Part shown: positions 274-64,000 of the stretch, one piece after another
Position numbering within the stretch: the stretch's first letter is position 1
Layout: the number at the start of each line of letters is the position of its first letter
NCBI GenBank assembly: GCA_964035575.1
Contig: OZ037836.1
Location: 434,001 to 498,000 of the forward strand
Source of the DNA: Rhynchopus sp. YZ270_cl-10
Taxonomy: Eukaryota
Reading direction: 5' to 3'
DNA: 64,000 nt
The notes under the pieces: generated by a model
Databases searched by the model: none
The model's input: the letters and a program-made list of their open reading frames with translations, nothing else
Told to the model about the DNA's origin: nothing
Program-made: the position numbers and the translations under genes

Positions 274-2202
274 TTATCGTGGGTAGTATCTAGATCCAGT
301 TCCAGGTGATTCCAGGTTTCTCAGATTTGTCTGGCTGTTGATCAGCTGGAGCTTTTGTAGATTATCCAACACGAAGGAGAGTGCCTCAACGCGGTCCTTG
401 TCATTTATTTTTGACTCAGTCCCAGCGGCGGTGACCGTATTCGCCTTCTTCGTGAAGACACGCTTGCTGAGAGGCGTGGTGCACGTTAGGTCCTTCGCCA
501 GCGACAAGCAGAACATGATGTCCTCACCCTGCTTTGTGGCGAGCTGCCACTTCTTCTTTTCCTTCCCATCTGCCAAGCTATCGGGCTGATACGCTGTCTC
601 CAACTCTGAAAGGGCCTGTGGGTCGGCCACGCGTAGGGGGTGCGGTGTGAAGAAGGCATTGCGGCACTTGTCGACGTCGTACAGGATAGCCTGCTCCAAG
701 TGGGCGCTCATGCAAAAGGGTTCCTTCGGGGGGTACTTCCTGTGGGCCCAGCGTGCAGGGGAGCCCGCGGGGCACTTTGCTTCGCTTAAGATGGGAAGCC
801 ATTTTTCCACCAGGCCCCACACGCCAGGAACTGTAATTTTGTCGCCCCACTTCAGCTTCCACGTCAGCTGCCACTTCGGCTTCGGCTTCAGCTTCAACTT
901 CGGCTTCAGCTTCAGCTCTGGCTTCAGCTTCAGCTTCAGCTTCAGCTCTGGCTTCAGCTTCAACTTCGGCTTCGGCTTCAGCTCCGGCTTCAGCTCTGGC
1001 TTCAGCTCTGGCTTCAGCTCTGGCTTCAGCTCTGGCTTCAGCTCTGGCTTCAGCTCTGGCTTCAGCTCTGGCTTCAGCTCTGGCTTCAGCTCTGGCTTCA
1101 GCTCTGGCTTCAGCTTCAACTTCGGCTTCGGCTTCAGCTTCAGCTCTCGCTTCAGCTCAGGCGTGCACTCTGCGAACTCCTCAACGTTGTCATCAACCTG
1201 AAGCGCGTAGCGCACCCCCATGGGCCAGCACACTTCCTCGACGAAAGCCTTCATCACCTCACGGACCATGGGGATGCCGCGGCCACCCCACGGCAGCCGC
1301 ACGAGCACGTGGCGCGCAGGTGGACGCGGAGGATGCAGTGCAGACTGTGGAGACTTCCGAATCTGCCCAATACGTGTTCTAAACGCATCAACCTCGCCAG
1401 GCTCGCAGAAGACGATGACGGGGTACGGACACAACCCGTCGTCGCACCAGAGGTTCGGTTTGAAGTTCTCGTGGCGGCGATGCAGCACGGAGGGCACGCA
1501 CACAACAACTTTGTCCTCAAATTGCGCCGTGGCCTTGGTGAGAAACTGATTCATCGTTGAGGGAACATAAAACTTGAAATGATCACGCTGCCAGATGTGC
1601 GAAGTCTCCACCAGAGGCACGCCGTCGCATGTACGGCAGTCGTTCACAACCTTCTCGCCGAACTTGTTCCCAGCGGAATCAACAGCAGGTGTCAGTTCCT
1701 TCTTCTCAAGTCCCTCACCCATGCACGGAACGTCATCACGAACACTCTCTGCGATCGCGCCCACCTGGGTGATGTCCGAGTCTGGGATGCCAAGACAATT
1801 CTCCCGGGTAACACTGGTGTCAGAGTGCATATGGTTCGGTGCCTGGCCCCTGGCGAGCTCAAGTAATTTTTTTTGATTTCGGGTCATTTTGCGGGGCTTC
1901 GTTCCCACGTCAAGACCTCTGAAACTCTCTGGTGTCATGTCGGTATCACCCAAGTCACGAAGAGCTGCAATGGCGTCGTCCTTCTGCGACTTCGTCTTCG
2001 TCAGCACAACTGTGTCCCCAGCACTCAGCTGCGTGATGTAGTCTCCTGCGGCCAGAACCTTCCCTCCCAAGCTCATGTCAAAGCCGTCTTCGCACAACTC
2101 TGCTGCAGACGCCACCTTCCGCCGTATGTCCGCAGTTGTATCATCCACACCCACCTCGACTGTGTACTTCTCTCTGTCTGAGCTTTCAACGCATATTTCC
2201 AT
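274..2202 (-). CDS. Ubl-domain protein fused to a putative GT-A glycosyltransferase (GREB1/TAGT/JGT-like), with an inserted KPEL low-complexity tract
   Basis: 642-aa ORF. The first ~85 aa are nearly identical to the N-terminus of the neighbouring Ubl-LRR genes. The C-terminal half has VVVCVPS...VIVFCEPGE...VLVRLPWGGRGIPMVRE...YALQVDDNV...QAILYD...GEDIMF, a motif order resembling TET/JBP-associated glycosyltransferases (recognised by eye). Confidence 0.7.
   Translation of the reverse strand: MEICVESSDREKYTVEVGVDDTTADIRRKVASAAELCEDGFDMSLGGKVLAAGDYITQLSAGDTVVLTKTKSQKDDAIAALRDLGDTDMTPESFRGLDVGTKPRKMTRNQKKLLELARGQAPNHMHSDTSVTRENCLGIPDSDITQVGAIAESVRDDVPCMGEGLEKKELTPAVDSAGNKFGEKVVNDCRTCDGVPLVETSHIWQRDHFKFYVPSTMNQFLTKATAQFEDKVVVCVPSVLHRRHENFKPNLWCDDGLCPYPVIVFCEPGEVDAFRTRIGQIRKSPQSALHPPRPPARHVLVRLPWGGRGIPMVREVMKAFVEEVCWPMGVRYALQVDDNVEEFAECTPELKRELKLKPKPKLKLKPELKPELKPELKPELKPELKPELKPELKPELKPELKPELKPELKPKPKLKLKPELKLKLKLKPELKLKPKLKLKPKPKWQLTWKLKWGDKITVPGVWGLVEKWLPILSEAKCPAGSPARWAHRKYPPKEPFCMSAHLEQAILYDVDKCRNAFFTPHPLRVADPQALSELETAYQPDSLADGKEKKKWQLATKQGEDIMFCLSLAKDLTCTTPLSKRVFTKKANTVTAAGTESKINDKDRVEALSFVLDNLQKLQLINSQTNLRNLESPGTGSRYYPR
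874..1158. repeat. Coding minisatellite, 12-bp unit CTTCAGCTCTGG with 6-bp variants, encoding (KPEL)n/(KL)n
   Basis: Directly visible tandem array inside ORF 274-2202. Confidence 0.95.
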
Positions 2203-2439
2203 GGTTTTGTGTCTCTCTGTTTTGTGCAGGTGTTTTCAATTGGGGGTAAGAGTACGCAAGAGACAACAAACAGTTAGGGAGAGGTCTTTTGCTAATAAAA
2301 ATGATCATCCAGATGTGGTGAAACGCCATAAACTCCACAACCCCTACAAAGATACTCCGCAAGCCATGCATAGTGGGCAAGACAAAGCAACCAAAAGAGG
2401 AAGAGGACAACTTGCAAGTGTGCAGAAGAGTGTTTGGAA

Positions 2440-4191: not shown

Positions 4192-5031
4192 TTACATGCA
4201 TACACATTTTCCCCTGAAGCTACGGCTTTTCACATATTCTGACACAACTCTGCTCGATCCTGCAACGTTGATGCTGCTATTACGTATTTTGCATCCTTTT
4301 AGGAAGCCTTTCTCAATGTTCTGCACACTCTCCCACCCGGATAAGTTAAGTGTTTTCAATGCACTGCAGTTGAAGAGGAAGGCCTCCCCAACCTGCGTCA
4401 CGTTGCTCCACCCAGTCATGTTAAGGGTTTGCAATGCTGGACAGTTGGCGAGGAAGAAGTCCTCTATTTGCGTCACATTTCTCCACCCAGATAAGTCGAC
4501 AGTGTGCAATGCGTTGCAGCTGTCCAGAAAGAAGCCCTCTATATGCGTCACATTGTACCACCCAGATAAATCAATAGTGTGCAATGCGTTGCAGTGGGCA
4601 AGAACGTGGCTGCTCACCCTAGTGACGCCTGTGGCACCACTGAGATCAAGTACCTCGAACGTGCCACCTTGCAAGTACCCGTAGAGGATCTCAGTAACAA
4701 CCTCCGCCTGCAGAAACAAATGAATCAGCTTGGGATCTGTCAGACCGTTGAACACCGGTGGCGTCAGCCATGTCTCACCCAAGTCACGAAGAGCTGCAAT
4801 GGCGTCGTCCTTCTGCGACTTCGTCTTCGTCAGCACAACTGTGTCCCCAGCACTCAGCTGTGTCGTGTCGTCTCCTTCGGCCAGCAGCTTCCCTCCGAAG
4901 CTCATGTCAAAGCCGTCTTCGCGCAACTCTGCTGCAGTCGCCACCTTCCGCCGTATGTCCGCAGTTGTATCATCCACACCCACCTCGACTGTGTACTTCT
5001 CTCCGTCAAAGCTCTTCACACATATTTCCAT
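4192..5031 (-). CDS. Ubl-LRR-CaaX protein, copy A (279 aa, 5 LRRs of 25 aa, ends RGKCVCM)
   Basis: ATG of MEICV at 5031. Ubl-like N-terminus; repeats LxTxDLSGWxNVTxIxxxFLxxC (BspA/LRR_5-like); C-terminal CaaX motif. Confidence 0.88.
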   Translation of the reverse strand: MEICVKSFDGEKYTVEVGVDDTTADIRRKVATAAELREDGFDMSFGGKLLAEGDDTTQLSAGDTVVLTKTKSQKDDAIAALRDLGETWLTPPVFNGLTDPKLIHLFLQAEVVTEILYGYLQGGTFEVLDLSGATGVTRVSSHVLAHCNALHTIDLSGWYNVTHIEGFFLDSCNALHTVDLSGWRNVTQIEDFFLANCPALQTLNMTGWSNVTQVGEAFLFNCSALKTLNLSGWESVQNIEKGFLKGCKIRNSSINVAGSSRVVSEYVKSRSFRGKCVCM

Positions 5032-6007
5032 GGTTTTGTGTCTCTCTGTTTTGTGCAAGGTGTTTTGGGGGTAAGAAGAAGAATCAAGCACAGGACACGT
5101 TGATCAGTCACGTCGCTCGACACTCCTGCTGATGCCCTTGCAACGTGAAGTGTGTTGCGTACTGGCTGTGTGTGTGTGGTGTGCAAGAGATAGAACAAAC
5201 AGTTACAAAAGGGAGAGGTCTTTTGTTTTTTTGAAAGCTTCGTTGTATTAGTGTGGACACCCAAGGATGTGCTCCACTATGTGTTCCTTTTCAACGTGGC
5301 CACCATTCTTTGGTTCACTTGCCCTGCTGAGGCAGAGTGGCTGTTCTTCAGTTTTGTATTTTCATGACTTTTCAGTTTCTCTATCCTCAGAGAGGACCTC
5401 TGCGATATGACGCGCAAACACGCCGTTTTCAATTTGATTCGCAGACCGATACTGACTCACGAAGTTGCTGTGTCAAAAAACACCTTCCTCTGCGAGGCGG
5501 GATACCACAGCGACAACGTCTATCACTCATGCGCCTATGAGTTGCTCAATGGCGTCATGGCTTTTATCATGACTACAGGGGTCCAACCCTGCACATTGTT
5601 CTCACAACACAAAATCTGAACAGACACAAATGAAGCGAGAAAAACAGAAATATTTACGCACACACTCTGTTGTCTAAACACGGGGGGTAAAAACAGCAAA
5701 ACAGAATATTTGTAGAGTGGCTGAAATGTTGAACACTGAAATACAAAGGTTTGGGTCTGAATAGCGTGGCTTCTTCTGGTGGTTGAAAATACTTATATTT
5801 CATTGCATTTTGAAACAATGTAAAATTCTTCTCGAAATTGTTCAAGATTGAACTGAGAGAAAGAAGAAACCCCAAACCCTCCCAGACCAAACGGTCTAAC
5901 ATGTTGTATTGATATAGTGTGGGGGTGAAGTGAGGAGCACGAGAATCGTCTTCGCGCTTTTCTTTAGTATTTTGTGACATATGCACACAAGTGCGGAACG
6001 TGCTGCC

Positions 6008-7195
6008 TCACATGCACACACATTTGCGCTTTGTCTTCTTGAGATCAGGCCTCTGCACGACGTCGCTTGCCTCATCGTCCATGAGGACACTGTGCACATG
6101 TTCTGACACAACACTGCTCGATCCGGTGATGTTGATGCTGCTTGGCCGCATCCTGCTTTCGTTAAGTGCTCCATTCCCAATGTGCTGCACACTAGCCCAC
6201 CCAGACAGGTCAAGTGTTCTCAACTCACGGCAGTTGGAGATGAACCAGTCTCCAATGCGTGTTACATTGCTCCACCCAGACAAGTTAAGACTGGTCAATG
6301 CGCTGCAGTTGGAGAGGAAGTAGTCATCAATACCGGCCACATCGTTCCACCCAGACAAGTCCAGTGTGGTCAATGAGGTGCAGTTGGAGAGGAAGTACCT
6401 CCCTATTTCCGTTACATTGATCCACCCAGATACATCAACGGTTCGCAATGCGCTGCAGTTGTAGAGAAAAGCGCACTGAATAAGCGTTACACTGTTCCAC
6501 CCAGAGATGTTAAGTGTCGTCAACGCGCTGCAGTTGTCGAGGAACGAATCCCCTATTTGCGATACACTGTTCCACCCAGATATATCAAGTGTGGTCAGAG
6601 ACCTGCAGTTGTAGAGGAACGAGTTCTCAATGCGCGGCACATGGTTCCACCCAGATAAATCAAGTGTTCGCAATCCGTTGCAGTTGAAGAGGAATGCATA
6701 CTCAATGTGCGTCACATTGCTCCACCCAGATAAATCAGCAGTGTGCAATGAGCTGCACTCGGAGAGGAAGTTGTCGCGTATTTTGGTCACACCTGTCACA
6801 CCACTGAGATCAAGTGCTTCGAACGTGCCACCTGACAAGAAGCCATTTGGGATCTCAGTAACAACTTCTGCCTGCAGAAACAAACGAATCAGCTTGGGAT
6901 CTGTCAGATCTTCGAACTTGTCTGGCGTCAGCCTTGTCTCACCCAAGTCACGAAGAGCTGCAATGGCGTCGTCCTTCTGCGACTTCGTCTTCGTCAGCAC
7001 AACTGTGTCCCCAGCACTCAGCTGCGTGATGTCGTCTCCTTCGGCCAGCAGCTTCCCTCCGAAGCTCATGTCAAAGCCGTCTTCGCGCAACTCTGCTGCA
7101 GACGCCACCTTCCGCCGTATGTCCGCAGTTGTATCATCCACACCCACATCGACTGTGTACTTCTCTCCGTCAAAGCTCTTCACACATATTTCCAT
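6008..7195 (-). CDS. Ubl-LRR-CaaX protein, copy B (395 aa, 9 LRRs, ends KKTKRKCVCM)
   Basis: Intact ORF with the same architecture as copy A. Confidence 0.9.
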   Translation of the reverse strand: MEICVKSFDGEKYTVDVGVDDTTADIRRKVASAAELREDGFDMSFGGKLLAEGDDITQLSAGDTVVLTKTKSQKDDAIAALRDLGETRLTPDKFEDLTDPKLIRLFLQAEVVTEIPNGFLSGGTFEALDLSGVTGVTKIRDNFLSECSSLHTADLSGWSNVTHIEYAFLFNCNGLRTLDLSGWNHVPRIENSFLYNCRSLTTLDISGWNSVSQIGDSFLDNCSALTTLNISGWNSVTLIQCAFLYNCSALRTVDVSGWINVTEIGRYFLSNCTSLTTLDLSGWNDVAGIDDYFLSNCSALTSLNLSGWSNVTRIGDWFISNCRELRTLDLSGWASVQHIGNGALNESRMRPSSINITGSSSVVSEHVHSVLMDDEASDVVQRPDLKKTKRKCVCM

Positions 7196-7829
7196 GGTTT
7201 TGTGTCTCTCTGTTTGAGGTGTTTTGGGGCAGGAAGAAGCAACAAAAACAGGGTACAGGTGTGTCTAGATACGTAGTACAGGTAGCACCCACTTTGACTT
7301 CGTCATGAAATTGAAACAACGCTGAAGATGAAATATCCACTAAGACGATATAGGTATGTGGCAACACTTCAGTTATCCTCTGCGATATGACGCGCACACC
7401 GTTTTCACTTTGATTCGCACACCGATACTCTGGAGGGAAACAGAAGCATTCTGCTCATGGTATACCAAGGGCTGTCAGTGGATCTGTTCCACAAAACGAA
7501 ACACCCCCTCCCACCCCTGCTCTACTTAGCCGCGAGTCGTTTGTTGATCGCATCCAGCACTTTTTTCAAACCCCAAAAGACGTCCTGCACCTTTTTACAG
7601 GACCTGCTGTACTGGGTGGATACCCCAACCATGCAGTCCTACGTCCATTTCGTGGTATACATCTGATATGAGAAAGACGGCAGTGGGTACAGGCAGCTAC
7701 GCGATGAGCTGAGGAAAAAGGGAGTCACGGTGGAGGTGGTGCACCTCTACGAGTCTGAGAGCCACCGTCATCAATGGCTCTGAAGGGGAAGGAGTCACGA
7801 GGGCGTCTGGATGCACGCACAGGAGAGGG

Positions 7830-9910: not shown

Positions 9911-10020
9911 AGACACACACATTTGCACTTGGTATCGTCCACGAGGCCACCGCCATACTCATGCACACATTCTGACAGTGTGTACTTCTCTCCGTCAAAG
10001 CTCTCCACACATATTTCCAT
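9911..10020 (-). pseudogene. Internally deleted Ubl-LRR-CaaX copy
   Basis: MEICVESFDGEKYT is joined directly to SECVH..DDTKCKCVC. The family upstream region is intact at 10021-10420. Confidence 0.8.
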
Positions 10021-11157: not shown

Positions 11158-12258
11158 TCACATGCACACACATTTGCGCTTTGTCTTCTGCACGACGTCG
11201 CTTGTCTCATCGTCCATGAGGATACGGCTGTGCACATGTTCTGACACAACACTGCTCGATCCGGTGATGTTGATGCTGCTTGTGGGTATTTCGCATCCAT
11301 ACAGGAAGCTTGGCCCAATGTGCTGAACGGTCGTCCACCCAGATAAGTCAAGTGTTTTCAATGCGCTGCAGTTGATGAGAAAAGAGTTCCCAAGCTGCGT
11401 CACATTGTTCCACCCAGACACATCCAGTGTTGTCAATGAGATGCAGTTGGAGAGAAAGGACTCATCAACCCGCATCACATTACTCCACCCAGTCATGTTA
11501 AGGGTTTGCAATGCTACGCAGTACGAGAGAAAGGACTTTCCCAGCTGCGTCACATTATTCCACCCAGAAATATCCAGTGTGGTCAATGAGATGCAGTTGG
11601 AGAGAAAGTAGTTATCAACCCGCGTCACATTGTTCCACCCAGATAAGTCAATGGTTTGCAACGCAGTGCAGCTGTAGAGAAAGTAGTCCCCTGTTTGCGT
11701 TACCTTGTTCCACCCAGATAAGTCAAGGGTTTGCAATGCAGAGCAGCTGGCGAGGACGGAACCCTTCAGGAGTGTAACATTGCTCCACCCAGATAGATCA
11801 GCAGTGTGCAGTGCGGTGCAGCTTTGGAGGAAACCTCCTTCTATTTGAGTCACACCTGGCACACCACTGAGATCAAGTTCTTCGAACGTGCCACCGTCCA
11901 AGAATCTAGAGGGGATCTCAGTAACAGCTTCTGCCTGCAGAAACAAATGAATCAGCTTGGGATCCGCCAGACCTGCGAACTTCTCTCGCGTCAGCCTTGT
12001 CTCACCCAAGTCACGAAGAGCTGCAATGGCGTCGTCCTTCTGCGACTTCATCTTCGTCAGCACAACTGTGTCCCCAGCACTCAGCTGCGTGATGTAGTCT
12101 CCTGCGGCCAGGAGCTTCTCTCCTAAGCTCATGTCAAAGCCGTCTTCGCACAACTCTGCTGCAGACGCCACCTTCCGCCGTATGTCCGCAGTTGTATCAT
12201 CCACACCCACCTCGACTGTGTACTTCTCTCCGTCAAAGCTCTCCACACATATTTCCAT
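11158..12258 (-). CDS. Ubl-LRR-CaaX protein, copy C (366 aa, 8 LRRs, ends KTKRKCVCM)
   Basis: ATG of MEICV at 12258; intact ORF. Confidence 0.9.
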   Translation of the reverse strand: MEICVESFDGEKYTVEVGVDDTTADIRRKVASAAELCEDGFDMSLGEKLLAAGDYITQLSAGDTVVLTKMKSQKDDAIAALRDLGETRLTREKFAGLADPKLIHLFLQAEAVTEIPSRFLDGGTFEELDLSGVPGVTQIEGGFLQSCTALHTADLSGWSNVTLLKGSVLASCSALQTLDLSGWNKVTQTGDYFLYSCTALQTIDLSGWNNVTRVDNYFLSNCISLTTLDISGWNNVTQLGKSFLSYCVALQTLNMTGWSNVMRVDESFLSNCISLTTLDVSGWNNVTQLGNSFLINCSALKTLDLSGWTTVQHIGPSFLYGCEIPTSSINITGSSSVVSEHVHSRILMDDETSDVVQKTKRKCVCM

Positions 12259-12759
12259 GGTTTTGTGTCTCTCTGTTTTGTGCAAGGTGTTTTGGGGGTA
12301 AGAAGAAGAATCAAGCACAGGACACGTTCATCAGTCACGTTGCTCGAAACTCCTGCTGATGCCCTTGCAACGTGAAGTGTGTTGCGTACTGGCTGTGGCT
12401 GTGTGTGGTGTGCAAGAGACAACAACAATTACAAAAGGGAGAGGTCTTTTGTTTTAATGGTGTGGCACGCCCCAAAAAAAAAGTCATATTTGTGTAGTTC
12501 TTATGTAGTGCTTATGTATTGTAAAAAGGGGGGGGGTAAAAAATTTTTTCCCACCCATTGTGTTAGAGCAGGCCTGACGCTAAACAGCTAAAAAAATAGC
12601 ACTTTCGGGCTTGGAATTCCGGTTTTTTTACGGGTTTTTCTACACAGGAATCAGACATTTTTCGACCTTGGTCCATGGCTGGTGGTGAAAATCATGATTT
12701 TTTTTTGCCCACGATACGTTTCGAACATACGCGCTGCGCGCGAAAAAGGTCCTCATAAG

Positions 12760-13931: not shown

Positions 13932-14119
13932 GGGAAAAACGGGAATTTGGAGGATCCCCTATTTTGAGGATCATTTTTTACAGTCACATTTTACCTTAGC
14001 AAAATCCGAAAAAAAAAATTTTTTTTTCGAAAAATTTTTGGCCCCCTGGGGTGGGTCTGGGGGCACCGAAAAATGCAAAAAAACGCAAAAATCGGGTGTT
14101 TTGAGCATCTGTGGTTACA
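13932..14119 (+). repeat. Left copy of the 188-bp direct repeat (putative TSD) flanking the retrotransposon
   Basis: Identical by eye to 18414-18601. Confidence 0.9.
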
Positions 14120-17100
14120 TCTAGCGGTGTGGTATCTGGATGACGGGACGCTGATGGGGTCTCCTCAAGGGGTCGCGGCTGCGTTCAAAGTGCTTCAGGA
14201 GGAGAGCCTGAGTTTGGGGCTGTCGGTGAACTCCAAAAAGTGCGAACTTATTCCCCTTGGGCTCTACCAACCAGACAGCTTCCTTAATGAGGCGGGATTT
14301 ACAGTGTCAGACCTGACGGTGATCCGGGACGGATTCAGCTTTCTGGGGGCCCCCATCGGCACCAATGAGTTCTGCGACAAGTTCATGGAGAAGAAGCTGC
14401 ACGAGTTTGCGTTGAATCTCCGCTTGCTGGGCAAGCTAGGAGACGCCCAGGTGGCCTTGTCTCTCCTGCGCCATTGTGAAGGCTTCTGCAAAGCGGTCTT
14501 CTACATGCGCGCTGTACGTCACCAAGGGGAGCACCTCTGGTTGAAGAAGTATGACAAGGAGGTGGACCGAGTGCTCGCGCAGATTCTGAGCTCGCCGGGG
14601 ACAGATCCCGACATATTGCTGCCGGACGCTGCCAGATTGCAGGCTGCCCTCCCCGTGCGCATGGGTGGCTTGGGGGTGCGCCGGTCGTACGACCACTGGA
14701 CGGCTGCCGCTATGGGAGCTGCTAGTGGCACCTACGCTCTGTGTAAGCACCTTGACAAGCACTATCGTTGGGATGCGGCGGGGTGGAGCCACACGGCCAC
14801 CAGGTACAACGAGTTGGTGGACGCCGATGCCCGCGTGGACACTGAAGAGCTTCCCCAGCAGATCCTCAAGCAGCGAGACCTCTCTGCCTCGATCATCGTG
14901 CGTCAGGTGGCCAATCTGCGTGATGAAGGTGACGTGCAAGACCGTGCCCGACTGAACTCGCTCCTGCTGCCCTTGGCCGGGGCGTGGATTACGGCATTAC
15001 CCCTCCCGGAGAATGTCATCAACCCCGAGGAGTTTCGAGCCGTGGTCCGCCTCAGACTGGGTCTTGTGGTGCACAGGGACAAATCACGATGCGAGCAATG
15101 TGGCCAGCCCATGGATGAATTCGGGGTACACGCCCTCAACTGCAAGCACGGGGGTTGCACGATTCGCAGACACAACCGGGTTCGAGATCTGGTGGGCATG
15201 TTGGGATCGAAGGCAGGCCTCGCTCCGGCCCTGGAACCAAAGCACATCGTCCTCGGAGGCACCAAACCGGCGGACATTTTCTTCTCCATCGGTATCGGTG
15301 ACGGCAGGCCTAGAGCGGTGGACTGCACGATCTGGAACCCTCTCGCCGCTTCTCATGTTCAGGAGGCGGCCCGAGCAGTGGGGCACGCAGCGGTCAAAGC
15401 TCAGTCGAAGAAACGGGGTAAACATGGTGACGCTTGCAGGAAGGCCCACATTTCCTTCTCAGCCTTTGCAGCCGAGGTCTTTGGGGGGCTAGGACCGGAG
15501 GCGGCTACACTGTGGCGACATTTGAACAAGATGGCGGCGGAGCGCGCGGATGGAGACAAGGTTCTGGCCTCGGTCAAGTGGAACGAACGCCTGGCTGTGG
15601 GTCTCCAACGGGAGGTGGGTGCCACGTTGCTGAAGAGGGGCGCTCTGTGCTTCAGCCTCGGGAACTCACGGGAGGCTTTGCCGGAAAAACTTGTTCCCCT
15701 CTCAAAAGACTACTACGCCCCGCCTGACACCCCTGATGACCGGTTCCCTTCCTACGTGGATGATCACCTGTACCGCTTAGCTGAAAACGATTGCGAAATC
15801 GTCGAGGAGCCCGCAGCCCCTGATCCCCCTTACGATGTTGATGAGGCCACAGTAGCAATGGAGGTGTGGTTACAGCGGCAGGCTGGCAAAGAGACCACCC
15901 ACCAGTCTTCTCTAGAAGTGACTCACGCTCCCTGTGATGACCCTGCAGCGGCCTTCCAGGCACAGTGTGCGTGCGACCCTCCTCCTGCTCTTGCGACGCA
16001 GCTGTCTGCCCTTGGATGCTCCGTCCCCGGGGACTTCCGCTACACTGTGGGTGACTGCTGCTTTGACGCTGTGGCGTACCAGTGCGAGAGGGACGCGGGG
16101 TCCTTGAGACTGTCTGCGATTGCACAGGTAGTCCAAGATGAGGACTTAGCGGCGCGTGCAGAGCCAAATGTCGCAGTATGGGCGAGTCGGATGCGCATCG
16201 CTGGGAGTCCGCGCCCGGACACCTGGGCTGACATGGTGACGGTTAACAGTCTTGCACGCGTTCTACATTCGGTTGTGGTGGTGTTCGTCGGTGGGCAACG
16301 GCCCACGGTCTTCACCCCCTCAGGCACTGTGGGCTACCGTCACGTGCTTGCGCTGGCCCACGACGGTCACGTAGCGGGCCACTTCACACCGGTCACCATC
16401 CCCGAGAAGCTGACGCAGTACCTCCTGATGCAAGAGCCGAACCCGCGCCTGCCGTCGCTCACATGTGTGTCTCGCGAGGCTCTGCTGGACTATCCTCAGG
16501 ACGAAACGAGGGCGGATTTCGGGCGATGCGAGTTGTGCTTGGCTGCTGTTCTTGGCAGTGAACGCCACTGGCAGTGTCGGGAGTGCGTGGGGTGGGCGTG
16601 CCTGTCGTGTCTTCCCCTAGGTTCAACTTGCCCTCGTGCCCTACCGGTCGCCAGCAACCCGCGCTCTGTGAAGAAGACGGAGCGCACGGTGACGACGGAC
16701 CCCAAGAGCAACAGCCTGGTGAAGGATCAGAAACAAGTCCGGGTGGCTAAGAGCACGGAGGCTGCGAAGATGAGGAGGGCACAGCTACACGACACCATGA
16801 GACAGGCACCATCGGACGTCAAGGGACAGGAGAGCGGCTACTCTACCACACAATCAGCCCTCCCTGCCGCCTCCGCGCCCTCGGTGCCCCACGTCGCGCA
16901 CGCTGTTCCCCAGCCTAACACCTCGCAAGCGCCCTCTGCTTCAGACGAGCCTCAGCAACATCAGACACCTACGGCGAGTGGCTACTCCAACACCAATTCA
17001 GCCCTCCCGTGCCCGAGCAATGTGATTTTCTGGAACGACTTGGCGCCCTGCCCTGGGTACAACAGGCCGATCCCAGCGACCCCAGAGGAGTGGCGGGTTT

Positions 17101-18377
17101 TGTTCTACCCCGTTGCCACTCACGCCGATCCCGAGGGCGCGTCTATGTCAGCTGCTAACGCTCTAGTGTGCTTCACTCGTTGGTGGGAGGCAATGAAGCC
17201 GAGTTTGAGTGGGGGGGACCAGCAGTGGGCTTCGATGCTTGGCGGCCGGCTCCGTAACCTTGCGAAGTCCGAAGCAGAGAGTGGCTACTCTAACACAGCA
17301 CCAGCCCTCCCTACTTCGTGTGCGCCCCACGTAGAGCAGACCCCTGTCCAACCTGGCACCTCGTCGCAGTCGCTTGCTGGATCGGCCGCGTCTCAGCAGC
17401 ATCAGGCACATACGGAGAGTGGCTATTCCAACACCCACTCAGCCCTCCCCGTACCCGCGCCTGTTGCAGCAGCTCCCTCAACCTCCAACACGAGAGTGCA
17501 GCCCCACGCTGTTCCGCCAACCGCTTCATCGCAGGTGCAGCCCACCAGGACACATACGGGGAGTGGCTATTCAAACACCACCCCAGCCCCCCCCGTATTC
17601 ACGTCCTCTGAGGCAGCTCACTCCCGCGCTGACACGAGTGAACAGCCACACGACGCCTCGCAAGGCAGTGCGTACTCCGCGGACCTCCTCGACAGGTCCC
17701 AACCCGCAGTTCCTTTGCCAGGCGCATCATCGGTCCCCAGCACAGACACAACATCGGAGAGTGGCTCCCAATCCGCACCACCAGCCCTCCCGAACTCTGT
17801 GCCGGTATGGAATGACATAGCGCCCTGCCCCGGGTTTGACTTGCCTACTCCAGAGACGGCCGAAGAGTGGGAGGGACTGTTCTATCCCAATACCACTCAT
17901 TTCAGCTCCCAAGGTGGGTACGGACTGACGGCAGCGGAGGCTTTCGAGTACTGTGGGCGGTGGAGGAATGCAGTGAAGCCGATGTTGAACCAGTGGGAGC
18001 TGAAGAAGTCGGCGGAGCTGTACAATCGCCTGCGGAGCCTTGTGCAGACGCGTCGTCGAAACGCCACATAGACACTAGAGTCACCATTTTTCTACTTTTC
18101 CTTTTTCGTTTCCCCCCCCCTCCCCCTTTTATAGACTAGAGTGTACAGCCAGGCCTGGCTAGACGTCGTTAACAGCTTTGAACCAAGGAGGTTCATCGTG
18201 TCGTCAGCCACGCCCCTAAACCAACAAAAGACTACAAACAAAAACAAACTTACAAGAGGCCGCCCCGTACCCCCTCCAGGCAAATAAAAAAGTAAAAGAA
18301 TGCCCTTCCTCAGTCCGGAAGTATCGCCTCAACCGGTCACCTGCCGTAAAAGAGAGAGAGGTTACAGAAAAAGCATG

Positions 18378-28861: not shown

Positions 28862-30950
28862 CTCCACTATGTGTTCCTTTTGAACGTGGCCACCATTCTT
28901 TGGTTCACTTGCCCTGCTGAGGCAGAGTGGCTGTTCTTCAGTTTTGTATTTTCATGACTTTTCAGTTTCTCTATCCTCTGCGATATGACGCGCAAACACG
29001 CCGTTTTCAATTTGATTCGCAGACCGATACTGACTCACGAAGTTGCTGTGTCAAAAAAACACCTTCCTCTGCGAGGCGGGATACCACAGCGACAACGTCT
29101 ATCACTCATGCGCCTATGAGTTGCTCAATGGCGTCATGGCTTTTATCATGACTACAGGGGTCCAACCCTGCACATTGCTCTCACAACCAAAATATGAACA
29201 GACACAAATGAAGCGGGGAAAACAGAATTTGCACACACATTCTGTTGATTCTAACACGGGGGTAAAAACAGCAAAAGAGAATATTTGTAGAGCGGCTGAA
29301 ATGTTGAACACTGAAATACAAAGGTTTGGGTCTGAATAGCGTGGCTTCTTCTGGTGGTTGAAAATACTTATATTTCATTTCATTTTGAAACAATGTAAAA
29401 TTCTTCTCGAAATTGTTCAAGATTGAACTGAGAGAAAGAAGAAACCCCAAACCCTCCCAGACCAAACGGTCTAACATGTTGTATTGATATAGTGTGGGGG
29501 TGAAGTGAGGAGCACAAGAATCGTCTTCGCGCTTTTCTTTAGTATTTTGTGACATATGCACACAAGTGCGGAACGTGCTGCCTCACATGCACACACATTT
29601 GCGCTTTGTCTTCTTGAGATCAGGCCTCTGCACGACGTCGCTTGCCTCATCGTCCATGAGGACACTGTGCACATGTTCTGACACAACACTGCTCGATCCG
29701 GTGATGTTGATGCTGCTTGGCCGCATCCTGCTTTCGTTAAGTGCTCCATTCCCAATGTGCTGCACACTAGCCCACCCAGACAGGTCAAGTGTTCTCAACT
29801 CACGGCAGTTGGAGATGAACCAGTCTCCAATGCGTGTTACATTGCTCCACCCAGACAAGTTAAGACTGGTCAATGCGCTGCAGTTGGAGAGGAAGTAGTC
29901 ATCAATACCGGCCACATCGTTCCACCCAGACAAGTCCAGTGTGGTCAATGAGGTGCAGTTGGAGAGGAAGTACCTCCCTATTTCCGTTACATTGATCCAC
30001 CCAGATACATCAACGGTTCGCAATGCGCTGCAGTTGTAGAGAAAAGCGCACTGAATAAGCGTTACACTGTTCCACCCAGAGATGTTAAGTGTCGTCAACG
30101 CGCTGCAGTTGTCGAGGAACGAATCCCCTATTTGCGATACACTGTTCCACCCAGATATATCAAGTGTGGTCAGAGACCTGCAGTTGTAGAGGAACGAGTT
30201 CTCAATGCGCGGCACATGGTTCCACCCAGATAAATCAAGTGTTCGCAATCCCTTGCAGTTGAAGAGGAAAGCATACTCAATGTGCGTCACATTGCTCCAC
30301 CCAGATAAATCAGCAGTGTGCAATGAGCTGCACTCGGAGAGGAAGTTGTCGCGTATTTTGGTCACACCTGTCACACCACTGAGATCAAGTGCTTCGAACG
30401 TGCCACCTGACAAGAAGCCATTTGGGATCTCAGTAACAACCTCTGCCTGCAGAAACAAACGAATCAGCTTGGGATCTGTCAGATCTTCGAACTTGTCTGT
30501 CGTCAGCCTTGTCTCACCCAAGTCACGAAGAGCTGCAATGGCGTCGTCCTTCTGCGACTTCGTCTTCGTCAGCACAACTGTGTCCCCAGCACTTCAGCTG
30601 CGTGATGTAGTCTCCTGCGGCCAGCAGCTTCCCTCCGAAGCTCATGTCAAAGCCGTCTTCGCACAACTCTGCTGCAGACGCCACCTTCCGCCGTATGTCC
30701 GCAGTTGTATCATCCACACCCACCTCGACTGTGTACTTCTCTCCGTCAAAGCTCTCCACACATATTTCCATGGTTTTGTGTCTCTCTGTTTTGTGCAAGG
30801 TGTTTTGGGGGTAAGAAGAAGAATCAAGCACAGGACACGTTGGTCAGTCAAGTCGCTCGACACTCCTGCTAATGCTCTTGCAACGTGAAGTGTGTTGCGT
30901 ACTGGCTGTGTGTGTGTGTGGTGTGCAAGAGACAACAAACAGTTACAAGG
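28862..30950 (+). repeat. Segmental duplication of 5272-~7200 plus the family upstream region
   Basis: Near-identical to copy B and its downstream intergenic DNA. Confidence 0.9.
29583..30771 (-). pseudogene. Ubl-LRR-CaaX copy D with a +1 frameshift (or a sequencing error)
   Basis: Extra T at 30593/30594 (GCACTTCAGCTG versus GCACTCAGCTG in the paralogs) splits the ORF. The LRR region is almost identical to copy B. Confidence 0.8.
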
Positions 30951-31799: not shown

Positions 31800-33105
31800 T
31801 CATGCAGCCTGGTCGTACATCTTCCTCATGACCGGGTGGCAGGTCCTCTCCAGCTTCCTCTGGGAGGACTGGAACTCCTCCTTGGTGGCCTCAGTGCCGC
31901 AGAGCTCGAGGGCACCGTTGCAGGCGTCCATGACCTTCTTCTTGTCGTCGTCGCCGACAAGCCCGCCGGTTCTGTCGTCCATGAGGGTGGTGACCATCTG
32001 GTAGGCGTAGGTCTCGAGCTCGTGTCTGGCGTCGACACGCTCGCGTGCCTGCTTGTCGGCCTCAGCGAACTTCTCTGCGTCGTTGCACATGTCGTCAATC
32101 TCCTTCTGGGACAGACGGCCCTTGTCGTTGGTGATGGTGACCTGCGACTTCTTCCCGGTCGACTTGTCCTCGGCAGACACGTCCATGATGCCGTTCGCGT
32201 CGACGTCAAAGGTCACCTCAATCTGGGGCACGCCACGCGGGGCCGGCGGGATCCCGGTCAGGTCGAAGGTGCCGAGCTGGTGGCAGTCCTTCGTCATCGC
32301 CCGCTCCCCCTCGAACACACAGATGTTCACCACAGGCTGGTTGTCCGCACACGTCGAGAACTCCTGGCTCTTCTTCGTCGGGATCGTCGTGTTCCTCTTG
32401 ATCAGCGGTGTCATCACACCCCCGTCCGTCTCAATCCCCACAGTCAGCGGCGTCACGTCCAGCAGCAGGATCTGCTCCGTCTGCGTGCTCTTTCCCCCCG
32501 TCAGCACAAAGGCCTGCACCGCAGCACCAAAGGCAACAGCCTCGTCGGGGTTGATCGACTTGTTCAGGTCCTTTCCGCCGAAGAAGTCCGACACCATCGC
32601 CTGGATCTTCGGGATACGGGTCGATCCTCCGACCAGCACAACCTCCGTGATGGCCCGCTTCTCAATCTTCGAGTCGTTCAGCACAGACTCCACAGGGCGC
32701 AGGCACGACTTGAACAGGTCCGCGCACAGCTCCTCGAACTTCGCACGTGTGATCGACGAGTAGAAGTCCGTCCCCTCAAACAGCGAGTCGATCTCAATGC
32801 TGGTCTGTGCCGCCGACGACAGCGCACGCTTGGCACGCTCACAGGCAGTGCGCAGACGGCGCAGCGCACGCTGGTTCGTCGTCAGGTCCTTCTTGTGCTT
32901 CTTCTTGAACTCCTCCACGAAGTGGTTCACCATCCGGTTGTCGAAGTCCTCGCCTCCCAAGTGGGTGTCTCCCGCAGTCGCCTTCACCTCGAAGATCCCC
33001 CCGTCAATCGCCAGAAGCGTCACATCGAAGGTACCGCCACCCAGGTCGAAGATCAGGATGTTCTTCTGCCCCGCGCTCGCGTTGTCGAGTCCGTAGGCAA
33101 TCGCC

Positions 33106-33137
<32 letters not shown>

Positions 33138-33644
33138 GTCCATCCCCGAGATCGCCCCTGCGTCCTTCGTCGCCTGACGCTGCGAGTCGTTGAAGTACGC
33201 AGGCACAGTCACAACGCTCTTCTTCACCTCCTTCCCAAGGAACTGCTCCGCCGTCTCCTTCATCTTCACAAGGATCATCGCAGAGATCTCCTCAGGCCTG
33301 AACGTCTTCGTCGTCCCCATGAACGACACCTCAATCAGCGGCTTCCCGTCCTCCTTCGCCACAACCTTGAACGGCCAGTGCTTCATGTCGCTCTGCACAG
33401 ACGAGTCCTCCAGCTTGCGCCCGATCAGACGCTTCGCGTCGAACACCGTGTTCGTCGGGTTCATCGCCACCTGGTTCTTCGCCGCATCTCCGATCAGACG
33501 CTCGCTGTCTGCGAACGCCACGTACGACGGCGTCGTCCGGTTCCCCTGGTTGTTCGCAATGATCTCCACACGCTCGTTCTGCCACACTCCCACACACGAG
33601 TAGGTCGTTCCCAAGTCAATACCGATGGCTCCGTCGTAGGACAT
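31800..33644 (-). CDS. HSP70: Cytosolic-type HSP70 (614 aa), lacking the C-terminal EEVD
   Basis: [30 protein letters not shown] and [12 protein letters not shown] motifs. ATG at 33644; ends MYDQAA*. Confidence 0.97.
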
Positions 33645-37785: not shown

Positions 37786-40689
37786 TTAGTGATACTCTGG
37801 TGCGGGTGGGGAGTAGTCACATTTCGCTACAATGTCCTTGAGGTAGCTAATTTCGTGCCGTTCGAAGATGGGGCCTTCTGCGACACCTGAGATAGCCGCT
37901 GTTGCTGCCTCCCACTTCTTGGCGATGATGTGCTCCCAGATCGCGTTCCAGACGACAAACTTGCTTGAGGCATCAAGGTTCGCAAGCTCGTACATCCATT
38001 CCGAGTCGTCTGTGGTCGCACGTTTGCGTGCCTCGTAGATCCGGATGAGCCCCTTACGCAGACGCTTTGGGAACTTCACCGCACCCACCGTCTTGAACTC
38101 AAAGTACCGCTCGCACGTCTCCGAGGCAAACATATCCACAACCCCATGGAAGTCCAGCCTCCGGTTCACCCTCTCCAGTGCATAGCTCCACCCCACGGCC
38201 GGCGACGTGATCGTGATCTTCTTCATCCCAAGGCACCCGAGCGCCTCCACGCGACCTGTCCCCGCAGTGCAGCCAAAGGAGAGCACCAACGGCGAGCAGT
38301 GTGCAGGCATTGCGATGCGTGAAATATCGTCACGCGAATTGAGCGCACAGTTGATGGCCTGGGCACGGTGCTGCGTGTTGACGGTGAAGGCGTTGAACGT
38401 GGCCATGACCTTGTCGCCGGAGAAGAGGTCCTGGACACCACAGTGCATCTTCATGGTTGAGACGAGACACTGCATCACTTCCTTGTTGATCTCCTCGTAC
38501 GACACGTCTGGGGTCTCAAGCGCGATCGCGTGCCAGCCCACCACGTTGAACCATACAATGGACATGCGCTTCTTCATCCTCGAGGAATCAACAGACTCCT
38601 CACCTGATGACCCTGAAGACCTCATGTTCGACGACGATGTTCTGCGCGTGTCGCCCACCTCCAGATGCGAGGAAATCTTGTGGTTGATGGGAAAGGAGCC
38701 ACTCCTGTTGGGGCTGCTGCCGCTAGCGTTGATGCTGTTGGTGCGGTTCTCCTTGCCTGACCCAGAGATGTTCGACACCATGACGGCCTGGGGGATGTAC
38801 TGGCGGAACTCTGCAAGGTTGTCCTTCATCTTCCCAAAGGAAATCTGCATCTGGTAGATGTCCCTGATGGGCGTGCGGTGGTTGTAGTTGTCCACCTCCT
38901 CGAGAAGCATGTGCGACACGAGTGTCATGTCCTTGCACAGCTTCTGAATCGGCTCAACCAGCCTCTGCACAATGAAACACACAAACCCTGCCAGCCCCGC
39001 AACCACAGCGCAGGTAACGGCAATCGCAATGATGATGCCGCCGGTGCGCTTCTTGTTCGCCTCGTCCCGCGACTCCTTCTGGTGGCGCTTCAGCTCAGCA
39101 TTGCTCACATCAACGTCGTGCATAACAGACACACGCGGGATCAGCACGTTCACGTACCAGTGGATCTCCTCACCCTGCTCGTAGAGCGTCGTGATGCACC
39201 AGTACGTGGTCGCCTCGCTCTCCGTCTTCAGAGTCCACTCGTAGAAGTGGTGTGTCGTCAGCCCCACCAGCCTGTCGTAGCCACCCTCGTGTGTCAGCGT
39301 GTACCGTGTGTGGTGGGCCACCTCACTCAGCTCCTCGCCTTCTTGCGTCTGCTTGAGGTGATCTGTCGCACGCACCATGTGCTTGACTTCCTTCTGTGTG
39401 TCCGTGCCGTTCACCGTGATGGTCGTGTTGACTTCCTCCAGGTCGCCTTCCATGTTCGACCCGATCAGGATGGGCACGTGGTTCGTCAGGTCCGAGTAGT
39501 CGATGACGTACAACACAGCACCCTCGGGGAAGTGGTGTGAGTGCAGGTTGCGCCCAAGCATGGTTCCATCCATTGTGCAAGACAGGACACCGACACGGTT
39601 CTCCTGAAGTTCGTACTTGTTGAGCATGAGCGGGTGCGTCACTGCCATGTAGGCATCAATCTTCACCTCGGAGTGGTGCGTAAACATGGGTGAGAAGTGC
39701 ACGTTACCCGCATGCTTGAGGTTGCTTGTCTCATCGTGTTCGTTGAACATATTGTACAGCGCCAGCTTGGACGAGCGGATGCGCTCTACATTGAGCACCC
39801 TGGTCTTGTCGTGGACACACTCCCCGACCTTGTCTGCCGAGACGTTGTAGCGCTCTTCTTGGAACAAGTAGGGGCTGAAGTCGAGCAGGTCCTGTTCCGA
39901 CAGGCCTTGCCCTCTATCGCCACCTGCGTTCTGGAATGCGGGCCAGAAACAGGGGTGACCTTTGTCGACCATGTGGCCACGCACGTCGGCACGCCCGATG
40001 TGGAGGTGGATTTCTGCGTAGCCTGCAGTGTGCCCGCTGTAGTACGCCTGGCTGTAGTCATGCGAGGCTGTGAACACAGACTCATCATGCGGGTCACGCG
40101 ACTCCCCCACGAAGTACACTGCACCACCGCTCTCTGGCAGCTCTCCCACCTGCTCGTCTATTGCATACAACATGACCAACCCACCTCTGTGCGACGTTGT
40201 GTTCGGAAACGACGGGCTGTAAGGCAAAGCTTCGTACATCAGCTCACGCATCCCATGCTTTGCGAGCGACCGCAATACGGTCATCAGCTCTGGGCGGATC
40301 ATTTCGTCAATAAAATGCGAGTCGGTAAGTTGGTCCGGATGGAACTGCTGCATAAACTCGCTGAGTTCCATGAGGGTTAGCTCTGGCATGTCAAGCAGCC
40401 CATGAATGTCACGCCGTACGAGGTCAGAGTAAGAGAGAAACAGCTCAGCAGTCATCTTCTCCGCTTCAACTTGCGAGACAGTGAAGGCACGTTCCAGCTC
40501 CACATCCGCTGCGTCATGTGCATCGTCAATGAGAGGCGCGAGAATCAGCCACGACACAGACCCCACAAGCGCCGCAGTGAGAACCAGGATCACCACACAC
40601 ATTGCAATCGCGACAGCACGCAACGTTGGCCGCGTGTCGTCCATCTTCTCATCGACCTTCCCCTCCTTCAGGATCGTACTAGAATACAT
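37786..40689 (-). CDS. Receptor-type protein: TM, large extracellular domain, TM, HAMP-like linker, degenerate class III nucleotidyl cyclase domain
   Basis: Two hydrophobic helices (AVAIAMCVVIL.., GGIIIAIAVTC..). LVEPIQKLCKDM is HAMP-like. SIVWFNVVGW and FSGDKVMATF are cyclase-like motifs. First ATG at 40689. Confidence 0.85.
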   Translation of the reverse strand: MYSSTILKEGKVDEKMDDTRPTLRAVAIAMCVVILVLTAALVGSVSWLILAPLIDDAHDAADVELERAFTVSQVEAEKMTAELFLSYSDLVRRDIHGLLDMPELTLMELSEFMQQFHPDQLTDSHFIDEMIRPELMTVLRSLAKHGMRELMYEALPYSPSFPNTTSHRGGLVMLYAIDEQVGELPESGGAVYFVGESRDPHDESVFTASHDYSQAYYSGHTAGYAEIHLHIGRADVRGHMVDKGHPCFWPAFQNAGGDRGQGLSEQDLLDFSPYLFQEERYNVSADKVGECVHDKTRVLNVERIRSSKLALYNMFNEHDETSNLKHAGNVHFSPMFTHHSEVKIDAYMAVTHPLMLNKYELQENRVGVLSCTMDGTMLGRNLHSHHFPEGAVLYVIDYSDLTNHVPILIGSNMEGDLEEVNTTITVNGTDTQKEVKHMVRATDHLKQTQEGEELSEVAHHTRYTLTHEGGYDRLVGLTTHHFYEWTLKTESEATTYWCITTLYEQGEEIHWYVNVLIPRVSVMHDVDVSNAELKRHQKESRDEANKKRTGGIIIAIAVTCAVVAGLAGFVCFIVQRLVEPIQKLCKDMTLVSHMLLEEVDNYNHRTPIRDIYQMQISFGKMKDNLAEFRQYIPQAVMVSNISGSGKENRTNSINASGSSPNRSGSFPINHKISSHLEVGDTRRTSSSNMRSSGSSGEESVDSSRMKKRMSIVWFNVVGWHAIALETPDVSYEEINKEVMQCLVSTMKMHCGVQDLFSGDKVMATFNAFTVNTQHRAQAINCALNSRDDISRIAMPAHCSPLVLSFGCTAGTGRVEALGCLGMKKITITSPAVGWSYALERVNRRLDFHGVVDMFASETCERYFEFKTVGAVKFPKRLRKGLIRIYEARKRATTDDSEWMYELANLDASSKFVVWNAIWEHIIAKKWEAATAAISGVAEGPIFERHEISYLKDIVAKCDYSPPAPEYH

Positions 40690-41908: not shown

Positions 41909-43214
41909 CTATGCAGCCTGGTCGTACATCTTCCTCATGACCGGGTGGCAGGTCCTCTCCAGCTTCCTCTGGGAGGACTGGAACTCCTCCTTGGTGGCCT
42001 CAGTGCCGCAGAGCTCGAGGGCACCGTTGCAGGCGTCCATGACCTTCTTCTTGTCGTCGTCGCCGACAAGCCCGCCGGTTCTGTCGTCCATGAGGGTGGT
42101 GACCATCTGGTAGGCGTAGGTCTCGAGCTCGTGTCTGGCGTCGACACGCTCGCGTGCCTGCTTGTCGGCCTCAGCGAACTTCTCTGCGTCGTTGCACATG
42201 TCGTCAATCTCCTTCTGGGACAGACGGCCCTTGTCGTTGGTGATGGTGACCTGCGACTTCTTCCCGGTCGACTTGTCCTCGGCAGACACGTCCATGATGC
42301 CGTTCGCGTCGACGTCAAAGGTCACCTCAATCTGGGGCACGCCACGCGGGGCCGGCGGGATCCCGGTCAGGTCGAAGGTGCCGAGCTGGTGGCAGTCCTT
42401 CGTCATCGCCCGCTCCCCCTCGAACACACAGATGTTCACCACAGGCTGGTTGTCCGCACACGTCGAGAACTCCTGGCTCTTCTTCGTCGGGATCGTCGTG
42501 TTCCTCTTGATCAGCGGTGTCATCACACCCCCGTCCGTCTCAATCCCCACAGTCAGGGGGGTCACGTCCAGCAGCAGGATCTGCTCCGTCTGCGTGCTCT
42601 TTCCCCCCGTCAGCACAAAGGCCTGCACCGCAGCACCAAAGGCAACAGCCTCGTCGGGGTTGATCGACTTGTTCAGGTCCTTTCCGCCGAAGAAGTCCGA
42701 CACCATCGCCTGGATCTTCGGGATACGGGTCGATCCTCCGACCAGCACAACCTCCGTGATGGCCCGCTTCTCAATCTTCGAGTCGTTCAGCACAGACTCC
42801 ACAGGGCGCAGGCACGACTTGAACAGGTCCGCGCACAGCTCCTCGAACTTCGCACGTGTGATCGACGAGTAGAAGTCCGTCCCCTCAAACAGCGAGTCGA
42901 TCTCAATGCTGGTCTGTGCCGCCGACGACAGCGCACGCTTGGCACGCTCACAGGCAGTGCGCAGACGGCGCAGCGCACGCTGGTTCGTCGTCAGGTCCTT
43001 CTTGTGCTTCTTCTTGAACTCCTCCACGAAGTGGTTCACCATCCGGTTGTCGAAGTCCTCGCCTCCCAAGTGGGTGTCTCCCGCAGTCGCCTTCACCTCG
43101 AAGATCCCCCCGTCAATCGCCAGAAGCGTCACATCGAAGGTACCGCCACCCAGGTCGAAGATCAGGATGTTCTTCTGCCCCGCGCTCGCGTTGTCGAGTC
43201 CGTAGGCAATCGCC

Positions 43215-43246
<32 letters not shown>

Positions 43247-43753
43247 GTCCATCCCCGAGATCGCCCCTGCGTCCTTCGTCGCCTGACGCTGCGAGTCGTT
43301 GAAGTACGCAGGCACAGTCACAACGCTCTTCTTCACCTCCTTCCCAAGGAACTGCTCCGCCGTCTCCTTCATCTTCACAAGGATCATCGCAGAGATCTCC
43401 TCAGGCCTGAACGTCTTCGTCGTCCCCATGAACGACACCTCAATCAGCGGCTTCCCGTCCTCCTTCGCCACAACCTTGAACGGCCAGTGCTTCATGTCGC
43501 TCTGCACAGACGAGTCCTCCAGCTTGCGCCCGATCAGACGCTTCGCGTCGAACACCGTGTTCGTCGGGTTCATCGCCACCTGGTTCTTCGCCGCATCTCC
43601 GATCAGACGCTCGCTGTCTGCGAACGCCACGTACGACGGCGTCGTCCGGTTCCCCTGGTTGTTCGCAATGATCTCCACACGCTCGTTCTGCCACACTCCC
43701 ACACACGAGTAGGTCGTTCCCAAGTCAATACCGATGGCTCCGTCGTAGGACAT
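41909..43753 (-). CDS. HSP70: HSP70 second copy (614 aa), protein identical to the first
   Basis: Same translation as the first copy. The duplication extends ~250 bp upstream; stop is TAG rather than TGA. Confidence 0.97.
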
Positions 43754-63394: not shown

Positions 63395-64000
63395 TTAGTG
63401 ATACTCTGGTGCGGGTGGGGAGTAGTCGCATTTCGCTACAATGTCCTTAAGGTAGCTAATTTCGTGCCGTTCGAAGATGGGGCCTTCTGCGACACCTGAT
63501 ATTGCCGCTGTTGCTGCCTCCCACTTCTCGGCGATGATGTGCTCCCAGATCGCGTTCCAGACGACAAACTTGCTTGAGGCATCAAGGTTCGCAAGCTCGT
63601 ACATCCATTCCGAGTCGTCTGTGGTCGCACGTTTGCGTGCCTCGTAGATCCGGATGAGCCCCTTACGCAGACGCTTTGGGAACTTCACCGCACCCACTGT
63701 CTTGAACTCAAAGTACCGCTCGCACGTCTCCGAGGCAAACATATCCACAACCCCATGGAAGTCAAGCCTCCGGTTCACCCTCTCCAGTGCATAGCTCCAC
63801 CCCACAGCCGGCGACGTGATGGTGATCTTCTTCATCCCAAGGCACCCGAGCGCCTCCACGCGACCTGTCCCCGCAGTGCAGCCAAAGGAGAGCACCAACG
63901 GCGAGCAGTGTGCTGGCATTGCGATTAGTGAAATGCCGGCGCGCGACTTGAGCGCACAGTTGATGGCCTGGGCACGGTGCTGCGTGTTGACGGTGAAGGC
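63395..64000 (-). CDS. Cyclase-like receptor paralog, C-terminal part (continues beyond the window end)
   Basis: Nearly identical to 37786-38391. The frame is open to the window edge. Confidence 0.88.
   Translation of the reverse strand, partial: AFTVNTQHRAQAINCALKSRAGISLIAMPAHCSPLVLSFGCTAGTGRVEALGCLGMKKITITSPAVGWSYALERVNRRLDFHGVVDMFASETCERYFEFKTVGAVKFPKRLRKGLIRIYEARKRATTDDSEWMYELANLDASSKFVVWNAIWEHIIAEKWEAATAAISGVAEGPIFERHEISYLKDIVAKCDYSPPAPEYH

Follow-up and report, generated by a model that had tools for sequence, protein, structure and literature searches.

The minus strand of the window, by which we mean the whole 64-kb stretch of DNA analysed here, carries at positions 274–2202 an intact open reading frame of 642 codons, from ATG to TAA, whose product (P0001) joins the ubiquitin-like (Ubl) head of a large family of LRR proteins to what is probably a divergent GT-A glycosyltransferase (GT) of the TAGT family, split by a 97-aa tract of KPEL/KPKL repeats. 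P0001 is a real, apparently unique chimera. Its combination of a Ubl head with a divergent TAGT-like enzyme appears to be new, although the TAGT family itself is known; no Ubl-TAGT fusion was found in the literature searched, which took in few subscription papers. The function that we favour, with a probability of roughly one in three, is that of a soluble DNA-base glycosyltransferase, which would move a sugar from a nucleotide-sugar to a hydroxymethylated base in DNA.

Architecture of the chimeric gene

The protein begins with the Ubl head (aa 1–97; 1912–2202, minus strand like all the coding parts given here), comprising the Ubl fold (aa 3–68) and the helix that follows it throughout the Ubl-LRR-CaaX family. 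There is no GG within aa 61–100, and the fold therefore ends without a C-terminal Gly-Gly. A linker of 127 aa (aa 98–224; 1531–1911) with weak codon bias and no family match leads into the N-terminal half of the probable GT-A domain (N-half, aa 225–346; 1165–1530), the predicted nucleotide-sugar-binding half, with R243, E267, R314 and D337-D338. The KPEL/KPKL tract (aa 347–443; 874–1164), made of ~22 copies of a 12-nt unit and bearing a net charge of +19, begins in frame 8 residues after the QVDDN motif. It is followed by the C-terminal half of the domain (C-half, aa 444–642 plus the stop codon; 274–873), with E560-D561 and G594; two smaller insertions also lie inside the GT domain. The protein ends in SRYYPR, and neither LRRs nor a C-terminal CaaX box were found in it. 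Seven motifs had been claimed to follow one another in a set order, and they do so: VCVPS at aa 234, VIVFCEPGE at 262, LVRLP at 300, GRGI at 307, QVDDN at 335, QAIL at 504 and GEDIMF at 559.

Upstream lies a 5′ flank common to the Ubl-LRR genes (2203–2251, minus), with a pyrimidine-rich end and, 14 nt upstream of the ATG, an AG that is a possible splice acceptor. P0001 occupies a slot of the Ubl-LRR array, as judged from its strand, its 5′ flank and the array spacer element located downstream at 21–147; the spacers that separate the Ubl-LRR genes hold further copies of this repeat element, at 5349, 9039, 10302 and 28939. The 5′ flanks were compared between window positions 2203–2300 and 5032–5200, 12259–12430 and 30772–30940. 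Most sibling genes contain a segment of ~100 nt that starts near GTACGC and includes a branch-point-like CTGAY, possibly a 5′-UTR intron or splice signal, which is absent from the GT gene. An Rfam scan of the whole 64-kb window gave no match.

The Ubl head belongs to a multicopy LRR family

The first ~97 aa of P0001 are the Ubl head of its neighbours, which bears out the claim of the sequence-only reading that the module starting the LRR genes here also heads a different protein. At the DNA level the head is 91.5–94.5% identical to four copies in the window over 294–340 nt. The shared block spans nt ~1943–2251 and extends to 1913 against one sibling; homology to the siblings declines over aa 86–97 and stops at about nt 1913. 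The Pfam ubiquitin model matches aa 3–68 of P0001 below its cut-off (E 0.0034) and two of the three intact siblings above it (E 3e-6 and 2e-6). These sibling genes (4192–5031, 6008–7195 and 11158–12258, all minus) carry the same head, continue with BspA-type LRRs and end in KCVCM.

In the protein collection, where 896 candidates were considered, all 40 other proteins found with the Ubl head carry LRR families (353–1124 aa), and 32 of them end in a CaaX-like box. The Ubl-LRR-CaaX family thus has at least 40 members there, several of which probably come from the same assembly as the window. The donor family represents a large LRR_5 (BspA-type) repertoire. In three runs the head was read ~400–1700 times as deeply as the GT; this ratio is not a copy number, and it suggests a family with at least hundreds of copies. 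No description of a family combining Ubl, BspA-type LRRs and CaaX was found in the literature searched, and it may merit a study of its own. Broken copies also lie in the window: a frameshifted Ubl-LRR copy at ~29573–30771 (minus), within a 97% duplicate of 5272–7252, and another at 10020 (minus) that is cut off after about 14 codons.

Other genes in the window

Two HSP70 genes of 614 aa (31800–33644 and 41909–43753, minus) are ~99% identical to each other and match eukaryotic cytosolic HSP70 best; both end without the EEVD tail that we take to be usual. A 1332-aa ORF on the plus strand (14073–18071), with a YLDDG motif and CCHC-like residues, has no Pfam match and falls into a cluster of 14 members; it presumably resembles a non-LTR retroelement. 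A 967-aa protein at 37786–40689 (minus) has two hydrophobic segments, no Pfam match and what we take to be a cyclase-like C-terminal part; a second copy, 96.6% identical, runs into the window end at 63395–64000 (minus).

Probable homology of the C-terminal half to the TAGT family

The C-terminal half of P0001 is very probably homologous to the TAGT family, as indicated by four partly independent lines of evidence (Pfam, the ESM Atlas, a phage profile and conserved alignment columns), although all the sequence scores are weak in absolute terms. In the ESM Atlas, aa 225–352 alone returned TAGT clusters as 29 of the 30 named matches (score 0.93; 167–170 shared features); since shuffled proteins reach 0.9 in 4–10 of 100 cases, we regard this result as good, not final. 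Pfam TAGT (PF20691) was the only match of the N-half (E 0.14, below cut-off; E 0.051 for the whole GT), with P0001 scoring 12.4–13.9 bits (E 0.05–0.16) against a gathering cut-off of 27.5 bits.

A phage TAGT set was gathered from three seeds: 157 of the 162 loci passed the coverage filter and 67 sequences remained after dereplication, from which a profile was built without P0001. It gave 6.2 bits for the N-half (best of 300 shuffles, 1.5) and 5.0 for the C-half (best shuffle, 1.2), with the two in the right order. Comparison with TAGT after removal of the KPEL tract, which the sequence-only reading had proposed as a check, yielded 10.3 bits in its profile version, against at most 2.2 in 1000 shuffles. 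Among the 993 frames of the window, that of P0001 ranks first by the phage profile (E 0.17). Other comparisons returned less: hhalign to TAGT gave a probability of 20%; in local hhalign the N-half was beaten by 1 of 60 shuffles and the C-half lay at the shuffle mean; a narrow profile of 22 TAGT sequences gave no support, ranking P0001 11th of 202; and pairwise BLASTP of P0001 against a phage TAGT found no match. The proposed Ubl-glycosyltransferase chimera therefore stands as an architecture, and its enzyme half is probably a GT-A of the TAGT/JGT/GREB1 family, judging from the Atlas, Pfam and profile-versus-shuffle results.

Close relatives of the GT were not recovered. The N-half has none at E ≤ 0.001 among 1.84 billion unnamed 50% representatives, and searches for relatives of the two GT halves gave 0 of 80 candidates in word-indexed proteins, none in phages, 0 of 8 stretches in viral contigs, 0 of 176 and 0 of 139 in metagenome contigs and 0 of 90 in genome contigs. 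PHROGs and NCBIfam returned nothing relevant for P0001, and sequence searches of the PDB gave repeat-driven matches or none, with no solved TAGT found. A profile search with alignment A1 retrieved 325 proteins; the 120 matches listed were all PF20691 proteins of phage-like length, none of them named as eukaryotic. A Pfam MRP-S25 match at aa 503–552, which overlaps the ED motif (E 0.0005–0.004, below cut-off), was set aside as chance. The genome of phage Nigel, a supposed source of TAGT, has a TET gene and no TAGT.

Predicted active site and fold

Aligned with the phage TAGTs, P0001 has R243, R314, D338, E560, D561 and G594 in invariant columns and its KPEL tract in a gap; QAIL is not on a conserved column. 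The active-site motif of phage GT-A DNA glycosyltransferases and of JGT is described as R...DDD...EDY/F (bioRxiv 10.1101/2023.12.21.572611). R243, D337-D338-N339 and E560-D561 follow this R..DDD..ED order, with IM in place of Y/F after ED; DDN is the commonest form in the phage set (39 of 68 sequences). Without the tract, the GT has a pI of 8.7, and the phage TAGT median is 9.1.

Fold prediction from the single sequence was of low confidence (pLDDT 38.7). An alignment-guided GT-A model reached pLDDT 56, mostly 63–88 over the N-half, and placed both halves in one domain. It matched GT-A enzymes, among them 2bo4 with Z 13.5 (rmsd 4.0, 189 residues aligned), a value obtained with an input alignment filled with TAGTs; likewise, viral TAGTs came first among the fold matches of a model built from TAGT rows. 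Both results are for this reason largely circular, and show compatibility only.

The gene and its junction in reads

The reading frame is more open than chance: out of 20,000 shuffles for each part, only 28 were stop-free for the linker, 388 for the N-half and 12 for the C-half. Both GT halves have a host-like GC3 (0.70–0.71), and their codon-bias score is best in the reading frame among the three frames of the same strand; for the C-half, one frame of the opposite strand matches it. Codon bias in the linker is near zero.

Part of the stretch occurs in nine sequencing runs from five studies, some of which may be the source sample; five of the runs contain more than half of it. Read contigs of four runs were compared over nt 1165–2700, which covers the head, the linker and the N-half. 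In the unique part, contigs showed no differences from the assembly in X1 (1165–1966) and X2 (1677–1975), of study P1, or in X5 (1728–1966), of study P2. The end of the sibling homology at nt 1913 is bridged in these three runs by 53–62 letters without differences. At nt 1943 only X2 bridges by at least 31 letters, and no listed contig spans the whole head, which is to be expected of a multicopy block that breaks short-read contigs. Runs X6–X9 hold small shares, and X6 covers repeated parts only. Read depth over the N-half is flat, and at 85% likeness the reads there show no variant letters, which gives no sign of a close second copy of the GT. Part of the linker (nt ~1633–1790) shows 15–40 times the GT depth in three runs and is, by this measure, repeated elsewhere; within the window it does not recur, and it matches no family.

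Origin of the fusion

The sequence-only reading had proposed that effectors were swapped behind a portable Ubl cassette. As all 40 other Ubl heads found (353–1124 aa) are followed by LRRs, P0001 seems rather to be a one-off graft. The suggested recent assembly is only partly borne out. In its favour, the head core (nt 2172–1963) is 83–100% identical to four siblings in each 30-nt bin. Against it, both edges have drifted: the first 30 coding bases are 76–80% identical to the siblings, and the last homologous bins 76% and 56–60%, where the siblings resemble one another at 96–100% and 73–96%. The head also has private residues, D86 and M89 and the changes G10R and F45L at conserved positions, each seen in none of the 40 relatives, and no close parental copy of the GT is present in the reads. 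These patterns are best explained by an older fusion that gene conversion has since refreshed; the alternative is a recent event with an unsampled donor.

A single recombination event within the Ubl head or directly behind it may have produced the fusion, with a GT of likely TAGT kinship replacing the LRRs and the lipid anchor while the 5′ flank and Ubl head of the family were kept. Gene conversion within the array would then have held the head core close to the siblings as the edges drifted.

Proposed function and alternatives

We favour a soluble DNA-base transferase because the catalytic residues are kept, the CaaX box is missing, the protein is basic and the characterised relatives mostly act on DNA. 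The two GT halves would form a single GT-A domain from which the KPEL tract loops out, D337-D338 would bind a divalent metal and the donor diphosphate, and E560-D561 would act at the acceptor. Free of both CaaX box and signal peptide, the protein is predicted to be soluble, and DNA binding may be aided by the basic character of the tract (+19) and of the GT. As the Ubl head has no Gly-Gly, it would serve as a docking or turnover tag rather than as a conjugated modifier. The N-terminus of the HSP70, the co-orientation of the genes and the cyclase-like gene suggest that the host may be a euglenozoan, perhaps a diplonemid, and it is probably related to the kinetoplastids. For a euglenozoan host, hydroxymethyluracil (hmU) is a plausible substrate because Diplonema papillatum is reported to encode the J pathway (PMC10161547) and two preprints date that pathway to early euglenozoans. 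No TET/JBP partner is evident among the window's six long ORFs scanned, and in a eukaryote gene order need not show one.

P0001 could instead be a neutral or decaying chimera, a recombination by-product of a fast-churning array, whether transcribed or silent, whose GT has been disabled by the tract and by drift. Neutral chimeras are expected of an array that contains broken copies, and the frameshifted and truncated family members, the private changes G10R and F45L, a linker that has near-zero codon bias and is in part repeated elsewhere, and the lack of GT relatives in every collection searched all fit this explanation. We consider it rather doubtful, since all key residues are kept, 642 codons are open, the tract is in frame, the codon bias of both GT halves resembles that of the host, and contigs from three runs of two studies show no differences over the unique part covered.

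Unlikely too, in our estimate, is an active GREB1-like transferase acting on proteins or another non-DNA acceptor and guided by the Ubl head, for example to Ubl-LRR partners. The Ubl head is a protein-interaction module, which counts for such a role, and the GT is only 15–20% identical to the characterised DNA-acting sequences compared. GREB1, through a homologous domain, is reported to O-GlcNAcylate ER-alpha (PMC7968844). The strongly basic tract and basic GT, the action of most characterised relatives on DNA, and the lack of the helicase-like and Zn domains of GREB1 speak against this role.

It is improbable that the C-terminal half is not TAGT at all, or that the Ubl-GT join is an assembly error. 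The scores do lie below cut-off, shuffles reach Atlas 0.9 in 4–10 of 100 cases, the whole head is spanned by no listed contig and nt 1943 is bridged by at least 31 letters in X2 only; yet two separate halves each score above all 300 shuffles and in the right order, nt 1913 is bridged in three runs by 53–62 letters without differences, and the frame is continuous across the join. Equally improbable, by our reckoning, is a bolder scenario in which the Ubl-LRR-CaaX proteins are membrane-tethered intracellular receptors in hundreds of copies and an active DNA glycosyltransferase of the phage type docks through the Ubl head into their pathway, where it would attach sugars to partner proteins or to DNA, in the latter case as a second J-like mark or on foreign DNA; if true, P0001 would add a third kind to the eukaryotic TAGTs, alongside JGT and GREB1. 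That P0001 is the organism's own base-J glucosyltransferase, a JGT orthologue with a captured Ubl head, is very unlikely: its flat GT depth and the absence of variant letters at 85% likeness are what a single-copy gene would show, and diplonemids and kinetoplastids are reported to encode the J pathway (PMC10161547; preprints), but an essential orthologue should find kin, and orthology is not supported because the N-half finds none at E ≤ 0.001 in 1.84 billion unnamed representatives, where the presence of JGT is unconfirmed, and because Leishmania JGT is given as 101 kDa (PMC7055916). P0001 is more likely to be an extra, divergent member of the family than the standard base-J enzyme of the organism.

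Comparison with known systems

Phage TAGT-family enzymes are described as glycosylating hydroxymethyluracil or hydroxymethylcytosine in DNA (bioRxiv 10.1101/2023.12.21.572611), and JGT as moving a sugar onto a hydroxymethylated DNA base (PMC10057400); GREB1, which O-GlcNAcylates a protein, is the exception (PMC7968844). The phage TAGTs (PF20691), which are TET/5mYOX-associated and include beta-glucosyl-HMC-alpha-glucosyltransferases, are the family that the N-half matches best in the Atlas and in Pfam, and P0001 shares with them R, DD(N), ED and G in order and a basic pI. It differs in its 15–20% identity, below the Pfam cut-off, in its added Ubl head, 127-aa linker and 97-aa KPEL insertion, and in its eukaryotic nuclear setting with no TET neighbour evident.

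Kinetoplastid JGT, compared here by its literature description, belongs to the same fold class, GT-A (PMC5741180), and has the same active-site motif (bioRxiv 10.1101/2023.12.21.572611); it is larger (101 kDa in Leishmania, PMC7055916), and the portion of the literature available on it mentions no Ubl head. The base-J link drawn from the sequence alone holds at the level of the family and no closer; in a search of 1.84 billion representatives the N-half had no relative at E ≤ 0.001. GREB1/GREB1L, as in P0001, have a eukaryotic TAGT-like domain placed behind other domains (PMC7968844). According to the same source GREB1 has 1949 aa, a Zn domain, an inactive permuted SF2 helicase and a protein acceptor, whereas P0001 has 642 aa and no such Pfam matches. 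The donor family itself finds a parallel, by its BspA-type LRR_5 repeats and CaaX boxes, in the BspA-like proteins with CaaX reported from Entamoeba (PMC2843621). Among the protist BspA-type LRR families compared, an N-terminal Ubl is present only in the donor family; P0001 has neither LRRs nor CaaX.

P0001 plainly illustrates domain shuffling from a huge Ubl-LRR-CaaX array, and the weight of the finding is limited to that of one gene with weak homology scores. The characterised eukaryotic TAGT-family enzymes are JGT, which acts on DNA, and GREB1, which acts on protein. A divergent third form with intact predicted catalytic residues would make it possible to ask directly what leads such an enzyme to act on DNA or on protein, and whether the DNA of trypanosome relatives bears more than one sugar mark.
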